A DNA stretch of 64,000 nt, taken from contig JBOFFI010000035.1 of assembly GCA_051648545.1 (NCBI GenBank), forward strand, positions 4,225 through 68,224, in the 5' to 3' direction. The notes beneath the pieces are model-generated. The model saw nothing but the letters and a program-made list of their open reading frames with translations. It searched no databases and was not told the origin of the DNA. Shown one piece after another: positions 62,197 through 62,861 of the stretch. This DNA is from Alphaproteobacteria bacterium. Lineage in GTDB: Bacteria; Pseudomonadota; Alphaproteobacteria; Holosporales; JBOFFI01. Made by a program: the position numbers and the translations under genes. How positions within the stretch are numbered: position 1 is the stretch's first letter; each line of letters opens with the position of its first letter.

Positions 62197-62514
62197 ATGT
62201 TATATCTAACGCGCAAGCCCGGAGAATCTATTTTAATCAACAATAATGTCAAACTGACAGTCATAGACATTAAAGGGAAAAGTGTGAGGCTCGGATTCCT
62301 TTTTTCCCCAGAAGTACGTGTCTTGAGGGAAGAAATTTTTCTCAGGATCCAGCAAGAGGACCAAGAAGCCGCAGAAGCTGGAAAATACATCCAAGAATTA
62401 GAAGCGCTTGAAGTTGCTAAACGCATGAAGAAGCTTCAGCATGCCTCAGAAAGCGAAGAGCACGAAACAGCGGTTCCGTTTCAAAAAAAATCGAATAGTT
62501 TAATGAGCGGATAA
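62197..62514 (+). CDS. csrA: CsrA-family RNA-binding regulator with ~50-aa C-terminal extension
   Basis: The ATG at 62197 gives MLYLTRKPGESILINNNVKLTVIDIKGKSVRLGFLFSPEVRVLREEIFLRIQQE. This aligns residue for residue with the CsrA core ([54 protein letters not shown]). 105 aa in total. Confidence 0.8.
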   Translation: MLYLTRKPGESILINNNVKLTVIDIKGKSVRLGFLFSPEVRVLREEIFLRIQQEDQEAAEAGKYIQELEALEVAKRMKKLQHASESEEHETAVPFQKKSNSLMSG

Positions 62515-62861
62515 TGGAAAAGGCTGAACTTATCGGTGTTCTTATTCAAGAAGCCTTACAAGCATCCCATGAAGTTTACTGTGATTTTCGTGAATCTGAT
62601 TTTTTTGATTCTTTTCCAGCTCTAAAAAAACAAGAGGAAATCTTGAAGCATTATATCTACACCTTGTCTCGTATAGCAGCCCAACAGGTGGAAGGGGAAC
62701 CCATCCCGCCTGGTACGACAGAAAAGCTTTTAGAGATGGTTCAAGGGTTTCGCCTTTGTGTTCAAGATATGTTGGATTTGTTGCAAGAAACCCAATTGTT
62801 CCTCACTCGGAAAGAAGGAGCTTTTGAAGCCTACGGAAAAACAAGCCAATGGCGCGATTAA
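62514..62861 (+). CDS. Small acidic protein of unknown function, translationally coupled to csrA (weak FlaF-like resemblance)
   Basis: 115 aa. The ATG overlaps the csrA stop (TAATG). Lies between csrA and fliO. Helical and acidic. Only a vague similarity to the FlaF layout (…EGEPIPPGTTEKLLEMVQGF…). Confidence 0.55.
   Translation: MEKAELIGVLIQEALQASHEVYCDFRESDFFDSFPALKKQEEILKHYIYTLSRIAAQQVEGEPIPPGTTEKLLEMVQGFRLCVQDMLDLLQETQLFLTRKEGAFEAYGKTSQWRD

Follow-up and report, generated by a model that had tools for sequence, protein, structure and literature searches.

A csrA gene and a fast-evolving, helical open reading frame ahead of fliO-fliP in an alphaproteobacterial flagellar gene cluster

Organization of the flagellar locus

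The subject of this study is a csrA gene and the small open reading frame (ORF) that follows it, ORF115, in a 64,000-nucleotide (nt) stretch of a genome from the Holosporales, Alphaproteobacteria (GenBank assembly GCA_051648545.1, contig JBOFFI010000035.1, positions 4,225 to 68,224 of the forward strand). This whole stretch is referred to as the window. Its flagellar genes form a mini-cluster of seven genes at the end of the window; in close relatives, the run ends after fliP. ORF115 is followed by fliO and fliP, and these genes are divergent from flgB, flgC, and fliE (Table 1). Small ORFs that were sampled elsewhere in the window proved to be housekeeping genes. An earlier reading made from the letters alone, the sequence-only reading, had described a CsrA core, a charged extension of about 50 amino acids (aa), a TAATG overlap with an acidic ORF of 115 aa, fliO-fliP after it, and the divergent flgB-flgC-fliE; all of these features are correct, including their positions.

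Table 1. Genes and sequence elements of the flagellar mini-cluster and its divergent promoter region in the window.
Feature	Position	Strand	Remarks
fliE	60872..61186	-	104 aa; PF02049 21.3 bits, just under the threshold of 22.4; position as that of the FliE genes of L004, L035, and L036
flgC	61213..61662	-	149 aa; TIGR01395 FlgC E = 5.6e-23, 81.7 bits, below the cut-off of 102
flgB	61692..62075	-	127 aa (start codon ATG at 62075); divergent from csrA; best NCBIfam matches are FlgB models, E = 1e-13, below cut-off; 127-aa product in relatives
CtrA-box-like motif TTAAGAAAATGTAAA (TTAA-N7-TAAA)	62127..62141	+	within the divergent intergenic region between flgB and csrA
csrA	62197..62514 (stop included)	+	105 aa; PF02599
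CsrA C-terminal tail, residues 54-105	62356..62511	+	charged; length lineage-specific
TAATG stop/start overlap of csrA and ORF115	62512..62516	+	direct sequence reading
ORF115	62514..62861	+	115 aa, acidic; predicted three-helix bundle; in the orfX slot directly upstream of fliO; candidate FliT-like export chaperone
fliO	62892..63188	+	GTG start, 98 aa; PF04347 27.2 bits vs threshold 22; TIGR03500 E = 9e-10, below cut-off
fliP	63175..63921	+	248 aa; 14-nt overlap with fliO; PF00813 270 bits, TIGR01103 289 bits

The last A of the csrA stop codon TAA (62512-62514) is also the first base of the ORF115 start codon ATG (62514-62516). Overlaps of 1-4 nt between csrA and the downstream ORF were also observed in four related loci (L001, L002, L025, and L027). 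The TAATG overlap is not strictly kept: L003 and L006 have gaps of 23-28 nt, and the downstream ORF has its own Shine-Dalgarno sequence in these loci. An Rfam scan of the window found tRNAs only; a small RNA of the Csr/Rsm type was not found.

Gene order in related genomes

A genome scan with a CsrA alignment, in which one genome was taken per GTDB species, gave 27 loci, nearly all of them from alphaproteobacterial metagenome-assembled genomes (MAGs). The csrA gene was divergent from flgB-flgC in about 20 of the 27. In the relatives found via CsrA, flgB is divergent from csrA, which is followed by a small ORF and fliO-fliP; CsrA is 65-80% identical to that of the window, but the small ORF only 19-25%. 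The unannotated alphaproteobacterial gene directly preceding fliO was named orfX in this study. It is always directly upstream of fliO and codes for a helical protein of 100-125 aa with an invariant terminal AY. Its homologs in the protein database are all annotated as "hypothetical", and no annotated orfX homolog was found when orfX members and CsrA were compared with plasmids by tblastn.

The distance between csrA and orfX varies among the lineages. csrA is directly followed by orfX-fliO-fliP in L025, L027, L097, L037, and the window clade. A paralog of the FlhB C-terminal domain (PF01312) lies between csrA and orfX-fliO-fliP in L012, L020, L021, L023, and L026, and two metabolic genes occupy this position in L013, L017, and L018. 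Furthermore, csrA is followed by purE/purK or other genes, without fliO-fliP, in L030-L034. L035 and L036 have the arrangement flhB-fliR-fliQ-fliE-flgC-flgB divergent from orfX-fliO-fliP, and csrA is absent there. The existence of orfX loci without csrA and of csrA loci without fliO-fliP means that csrA is linked to flgB and orfX to fliO-fliP, and that the two genes meet only in some lineages. In other words, csrA and orfX/ORF115 show independent phylogenetic linkage.

This result bears on the proposal in the sequence-only reading that the two genes form a dedicated CsrA-partner module. Their co-occurrence in relatives holds in part, in that they are adjacent in several lineages; each is, however, also found without the other or separated from it by other genes. 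A dedicated module was not shown: csrA tracks flgB-flgC, and the small helical gene tracks fliO-fliP. csrA and ORF115 touch in the lineage of the window because the genes separating them in other lineages are absent. Their adjacency and the TAATG overlap imply co-expression, not partnership.

The FlhB C-terminal-domain paralogs deserve a separate description. They are stand-alone genes that match PF01312 positions ~255-335 with E values of 1e-14 to 1e-17, and they are located between csrA and orfX in many alphaproteobacterial loci (L012:6524-6922, L021:8237-8650, L020:8322-8759, L023:8316-8702, L026:8209-8568, and L022:6046-6357). The lineage of the window has no such paralog.

A scan of metagenomes with the CsrA alignment gave mostly marine CsrAs of 79 aa without flagellar neighbours, together with one extra csrA-orfX junction (L097). 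The marine contigs, which are among L038-L117 (for example, L062:3001-3240), encode CsrAs of ~79 aa that are 53-59% identical to the core of the window protein, with no flagellar genes within 3 kb. This means that Alphaproteobacteria-like CsrAs of this subfamily are not all bound to flagellar loci.

Properties of ORF115

The product of ORF115 contains 20 acidic (D+E) and 12 basic (K+R) residues and has an isoelectric point of 4.74. The gene is kept in four close relatives in the same context, with identities of 65-88%. Its ratio of nonsynonymous to synonymous substitution rates (dN/dS) is 0.24-0.35, which corresponds to purifying but relaxed selection; the values for FliP and FliO are 0.03-0.06 and 0.05-0.19, respectively. 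ORF115 changes 3-10 times faster than the neighbouring genes. The conservation and the dN/dS values rule out a spurious ORF.

Searches of Pfam (E<=10) and NCBIfam with ORF115 and six relatives gave nothing above noise, with FliW, FlaF, FliS, FlgN, and FliT included among the families covered. FliS, FlgN, and FlaF had been named in the sequence-only reading as well-known families to which the 115-aa ORF might belong, and none of them was matched. PDB sequence-profile searches with two query sets (A1 and A4) gave coiled-coil noise only. The AlphaFold2 (AF2) model of ORF115 is all-helical, with a mean predicted local distance difference test (pLDDT) score of 82.7: the helices comprise residues 3-22, 35-59, and 68-106 and are followed by a short C-terminal turn. 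When the models of ORF115 and orfX were compared with the PDB by Foldseek, generic three-helix bundles (BAG, spectrin, and syntaxin Habc) were obtained at E >= 0.17.

The all-helical model excludes FliW, since FliW is rich in β-structure. In addition, PF02623 (FliW) was not matched by any of the seven ORF115-family members at E<=10, in agreement with the earlier judgement by eye that the ORF is not FliW-like. The same judgement had found ORF115 vaguely similar to FlaF. This was not upheld: PF07309 (FlaF) was matched neither by the seven family members (E<=10) nor by eight orfX members (E<=1).

Relationship between ORF115 and orfX

ORF115 occupies the slot of orfX: fliO-fliP follow it directly, and flgB lies on the other, divergent strand. 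The model of orfX (pLDDT 89) has helices at residues 3-26, 36-48, and 52-106. The two proteins have in common a similar length, the predicted three-helix topology, a Pro-containing loop before the last helix, and a C-terminal A-x-x-AY motif, which appears as AFEAYGK in ORF115.

Profile comparisons by hhalign gave weak matches between them. The ORF115 family aligned with orfX at E = 0.04-0.1 in small alignments. For the small ORFs of L004 and L037, the alignment with orfX has E = 1.6e-3 and covers 91 collinear columns; the alignment with the ORF115 clade has E = 0.023. These ORFs adjoin CsrAs of the window subfamily: P0012, compared over its core, has 81% identity to the window CsrA, and P0011 has 71%. 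When the ORF115 clade and the L004/L037 ORFs were combined and compared with 34 orfX sequences, a collinear alignment was obtained with E = 7e-4 and a score of 25.4, while reversed-sequence nulls score 14. On the basis of the slot, the length, the predicted topology, the motifs, and these weak profile matches, ORF115 is probably a diverged orfX.

A different explanation is that ORF115 is unrelated to orfX and to FliT, and that a lineage-specific gene replaced orfX in the slot. Such a replacement would agree with the statistical weakness of every sequence link and with the outcome of an exhaustive HMMER search, in which the ORF115 profile, compared with 1.8 billion representatives, retrieved its own cluster and two repetitive proteins only. 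However, it would leave the identical slot and the common length, predicted topology, Pro loop, and AY motif to coincidence, and the weak alignments, which are collinear, score above the reversed-sequence nulls. The measured fast change of ORF115 predicts a loss of signal, so that fading of its similarity to orfX is to be expected. Replacement is thus considered rather unlikely, and descent from orfX is preferred.

Resemblance to FliT

FliT is a small acidic helical export chaperone of the filament cap FliD, consisting of three long helices and a regulatory C-terminal helix. PF05400 (FliT) is the only Pfam family with recurrent matches in orfX; they comprise 7 of 26 members, lie in the same register, and have a best E value of 4.5e-4. 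FliT was also the top match of the consensus of all 42 sequences (E = 0.003, 18.7 bits); for FlgN, a consensus sequence gave E = 3.1. The AY is the exact end point of the FliT model in both orfX and Salmonella FliT.

The sequence of Salmonella FliT, which was verified in PDB entry 3A7M, contains TPPGITRSIQDMVAGY and RQKSLNNAYGR, and the corresponding segments of ORF115 are IPPGTTEKLLEMVQGF and RKEGAFEAYGK. The motifs P-P-G-x-T...(D/E)-M-V-x-G-(Y/F) and R-(K/Q)-x-x-x-x-x-A-Y-G are common to both proteins. In the hhalign comparison of the ORF115 clade with Salmonella FliT, 19 columns aligned at E = 0.003 and 54 collinear columns at E = 0.02; the reversed nulls score 11-14.5. Further similarities of ORF115 to FliT are its small size (about 115-122 aa), its acidic composition, and its helical structure of three long helices and a short C-terminal segment. 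Its helix 3 is about 11 residues shorter than that of Salmonella FliT, and its genomic context is fliO-fliP instead of fliD-fliS-fliT. A Foldseek search of the PDB with the orfX model did not single out FliT; as regards FliS and FlgN, it gave only a FliS structure (6lea) at E = 1.2. The likeness of orfX/ORF115 to FliT is suggestive. An export chaperone was one of the options raised in the sequence-only reading, and the FliT-like signals make it the option that is now favoured.

Identification of orfX/ORF115 with FliJ/SctO was also considered and was rejected: there was a single SpaM match (E = 0.004), and the models show three helices instead of a two-helix hairpin.

The CsrA core and its C-terminal tail

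The CsrA core, which had been recognized in the sequence-only reading, is genuine. The protein matches PF02599 over the full domain (model positions 1-53 of 53) with 65.9 bits, the gathering threshold being 27. The equivalog cut-offs of CsrA in NCBIfam were not reached (65.1 and 65.5 bits for TIGR00202 and NF002469 vs 70.1 and 73). As judged from these profiles, the window protein is a member of the CsrA family, but no trusted equivalog of enterobacterial CsrA. In an ungapped alignment made by eye with E. coli CsrA, L2, L4, R6, K7, V40, V42, R44, E46, and I47 are kept. In this alignment, the segments MLYLTRKPGE...VRVLREEIF of the window protein comprise the classical RNA-binding positions of β1 and β5. 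It should be mentioned that an in-frame ATG at 62179 would lengthen CsrA by MKGKFS.

The core is invariant among the relatives (dN = 0). For comparison with close relatives, dN/dS is 0.07-0.13 for the whole CsrA and ~0.2 for the tail. Of the 52 residues of the tail (positions 54-105), 11 are acidic and 7 are basic; the first ~30 are conserved in homologs at 65-78% identity. CsrA has a length of 105-109 aa in the window clade, compared with 61-85 aa for the other alphaproteobacterial CsrAs of flagellar loci.

The long tail raises the question of whether ORF115 is an antagonist or partner of the extended CsrA, in the manner of FliW or CesT and perhaps besides a chaperone role. ORF115 would then bind the tail and free the repression once its export substrate leaves. 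CesT of enteropathogenic Escherichia coli is a chaperone that also antagonises CsrA, and this double function is a precedent. A partner switch between CsrA and its antagonist FliW has also been described (PMC4894983). Several features of the locus are consistent with such a role: csrA and ORF115 are in one operon with the TAATG overlap, and the gene directly after csrA is an ORF of the ORF115 type or a true orfX in the window clade, L006, L007, L004, L037, L025, L027, and L097. Furthermore, the long CsrA tail and the ORF115-type sequence are confined to the same clade, and both have similarly elevated rates (dN of about 0.10 for the tail vs 0.15-0.17 for ORF115). This co-occurrence of tail and ORF type is, however, confounded by shared ancestry. 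orfX accompanies fliO-fliP in loci without csrA nearby (L035 and L036), csrA also occurs without an adjacent orfX, and ORF115 is predicted to be all-α, unlike FliW. An antagonist role of ORF115 is considered unlikely, although it deserves appreciable weight.

The divergent promoter region

The spacer between flgB and csrA has 121 bp and holds TTAAGAAAATGTAAA, which resembles the full CtrA site TTAA-N7-TTAA. According to a promoter scan, this motif overlaps a σ70-like promoter with a -35 element TTAAGA, a spacer of 17 nt, and GATAAT. The motif is invariant in L001-L003, L006, L004, and L037 despite their diverged flanks. In distant loci with a higher GC content, related boxes of the form TTAA-N7-T(T/A)AA precede csrA by 59-75 nt; they read TTAATAAACTGTAAA, TTAACAAsCCCTTAA, and TTAATAAAGGGTAAA.

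In Caulobacter, flgBp and fliOp, two divergent promoters, share a CtrA site (PMC6180460). The class II/III promoters of Caulobacter crescentus have an arrangement similar to that of the window: the operon that diverges from flgB has fliO-fliP at its end, and the short spacer between the two holds a TTAA-N7-T(T/A)AA box. As differences, csrA and ORF115 are inserted ahead of fliO in the window, and the second half-site of the window motif is TAAA instead of TTAA. csrA-ORF115-fliO-fliP might thus be an early flagellar operon of the CtrA type, headed by a putative CtrA site.

The sequence TTAA-N7-TWAA occurs 22 times in the window, compared with 9.8 ± 3.9 occurrences expected from shuffles, and none of 100 shuffles reached 22. 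Copies are found, for example, at 5626, 5784, 6773, 28337, 37308, and 59886; several are palindromic and intergenic. The excess fits a CtrA-type regulon, or simply AT-rich intergenic DNA.

Comparison with the CsrA-FliW and FlbT-FlaF systems

The CsrA-FliW system of Bacillus subtilis, Campylobacter jejuni, and spirochaetes is similar to the present locus in that CsrA is found among flagellar genes and has a C-terminal extension beyond the 61-aa enterobacterial form. The window csrA differs from it in lacking an adjoining FliW-like gene, since ORF115 has an all-α model and gives no PF02623 signal. It also differs in heading a presumably early operon (export-gate, CtrA-box type) instead of lying near flagellin, and in the much longer tail of its product. 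The window CsrA is a variant of the flagellar CsrA theme, with a presumably early export-gate context behind a CtrA-box-like site, a long tail, and no adjacent FliW.

FlbT and FlaF, a pair for post-transcriptional control of flagella, occur in Caulobacter, Brucella, and rhizobia. They have been described as a system analogous to FliW-CsrA (PMC4894983). The sequence-only reading had suggested that the csrA-ORF115 pair could be a bridge between the two systems. In such an intermediate, the extended CsrA would correspond to FlbT and ORF115 to FlaF. The analogy is a gross one: in both cases, an RNA-binding repressor, which in the window has a C-terminal extension, accompanies a small helical protein in an alphaproteobacterium. 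However, the window proteins match neither the FlbT nor the FlaF hidden Markov model. CsrA matched PF02599 only when it was compared with Pfam at E<=1, without a match to FlbT (PF07378), and ORF115 and orfX did not match FlaF, as described above. The genomic context also differs, the pair being tied to fliO-fliP and flgB and not to flagellin genes. A bridge between the two systems is thus unsupported, and such an intermediate is considered extremely improbable.

GGA was also counted near the local start codons, but most Shine-Dalgarno sequences contain it, so that the counts were uninformative. In a separate observation, the flagellin probe had its only match in L026, a Rickettsiales MAG with the order csrA-flhB-like-orfX-fliO-fliP. 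The matching long, atypical ORF (L026:14805-16181), located 5 kb downstream, starts with an N-terminal domain of the flagellin type, which is 30% identical to FliC of Salmonella over 133 aa. The ORF runs on for more than 450 aa with Gly/Asp-rich, repeat-like sequence. The leader of this flagellin-like ORF has no GGA near the start codon.

Other features of the window

A 167-aa ORF (60302-60805, + strand) is located between a tRNA-Thr gene and fliE. It has a signal peptide of the lipoprotein type (…FLMAC…) and belongs to no Pfam family. It is kept next to fliE in L001-L003 and L008-L010 with 67-87% identity and may be a lineage-specific flagellar or envelope lipoprotein.

ARAGORN assigned a tRNA of undetermined identity with a 4-base anticodon (cggg) to 35798-35875 on the + strand; the Rfam tRNA score is weak (35.8 bits). 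The gene reads …CACCACCTTCGGGAAGGCGGGG… and has an encoded CCA end. It is probably a tRNA-Pro(CGG) whose anticodon loop is ambiguous or enlarged.

Discussion

On balance, csrA and ORF115 are considered, with modest confidence, to be two independent flagellar accessory genes, a translational repressor and a FliT-like export chaperone, which are juxtaposed in an operon of the class II type. csrA-ORF115-fliO-fliP would be the start of an export-gate operon that is divergent from flgB-flgC-fliE, with the CtrA-box-like site between them. CsrA represses the translation of flagellar mRNAs in Bacillus and Campylobacter (PMC4894983). By analogy, the window CsrA would most likely act as elsewhere, binding to GGA motifs in flagellar mRNA leaders and blocking translation. 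Since it would be produced along with the early export-gate genes, it would restrain the later flagellar genes. ORF115, as a local fast-evolving orfX, would most likely serve as a cytoplasmic type III export chaperone or as an accessory factor of the export gate.

Several results weigh against this interpretation. For ORF115, homology to orfX and to FliT does not reach accepted thresholds (hhalign probabilities of 1-26%), and hmmsearch with the orfX profile did not retrieve it. The FliT matches of orfX are below the Pfam gathering score (<=18.7 bits vs 29.5), and PF05400 was not matched by any member of the ORF115 clade or by the clade consensus. The Foldseek search of the PDB with the ORF115 model gave only generic helical bundles at E >= 1, and FliT was absent from the top 50 for the ORF115 model and the orfX model alike. 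The flagellin probe found no flagellin gene in the window, and for this reason no target mRNA of CsrA was identified. In addition, the tight and often overlapping adjacency of csrA and orfX arose or persisted in several lineages and could reflect a functional link.

If such a link were real, a bolder proposal could be made. In alphaproteobacteria with a csrA at the flagellar locus, the FliT-like orfX/ORF115 would be the missing CsrA antagonist, that is, a third, independently recruited type III chaperone after FliW and CesT, which would couple substrate secretion to the release of CsrA. The 52-aa tail would be the docking site, and CtrA would switch the module on early. This proposal is speculative and is considered improbable.

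The role of CsrA in flagellar assembly is well worked out only where it is antagonised by FliW; for the Alphaproteobacteria, the discussion usually turns on FlbT and FlaF. Searches of the open-access literature gave no account of orfX, or of a csrA at a flagellar locus, in Alphaproteobacteria. Two points seem to be new. In many alphaproteobacterial MAGs, the position of csrA is fixed: it diverges from flgB and is preceded by a CtrA-box-like site. In addition, an unannotated helical family, orfX, which is possibly FliT-like, is located in front of fliO across the class. The identity of the CsrA antagonist in these bacteria, and the role of orfX as the "missing" alphaproteobacterial chaperone of the FliT type, are now directly testable. 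If ORF115/orfX is a chaperone only, the result would be an improvement of annotation. If it also titrates CsrA, it would represent a new case of secretion-coupled translational control.

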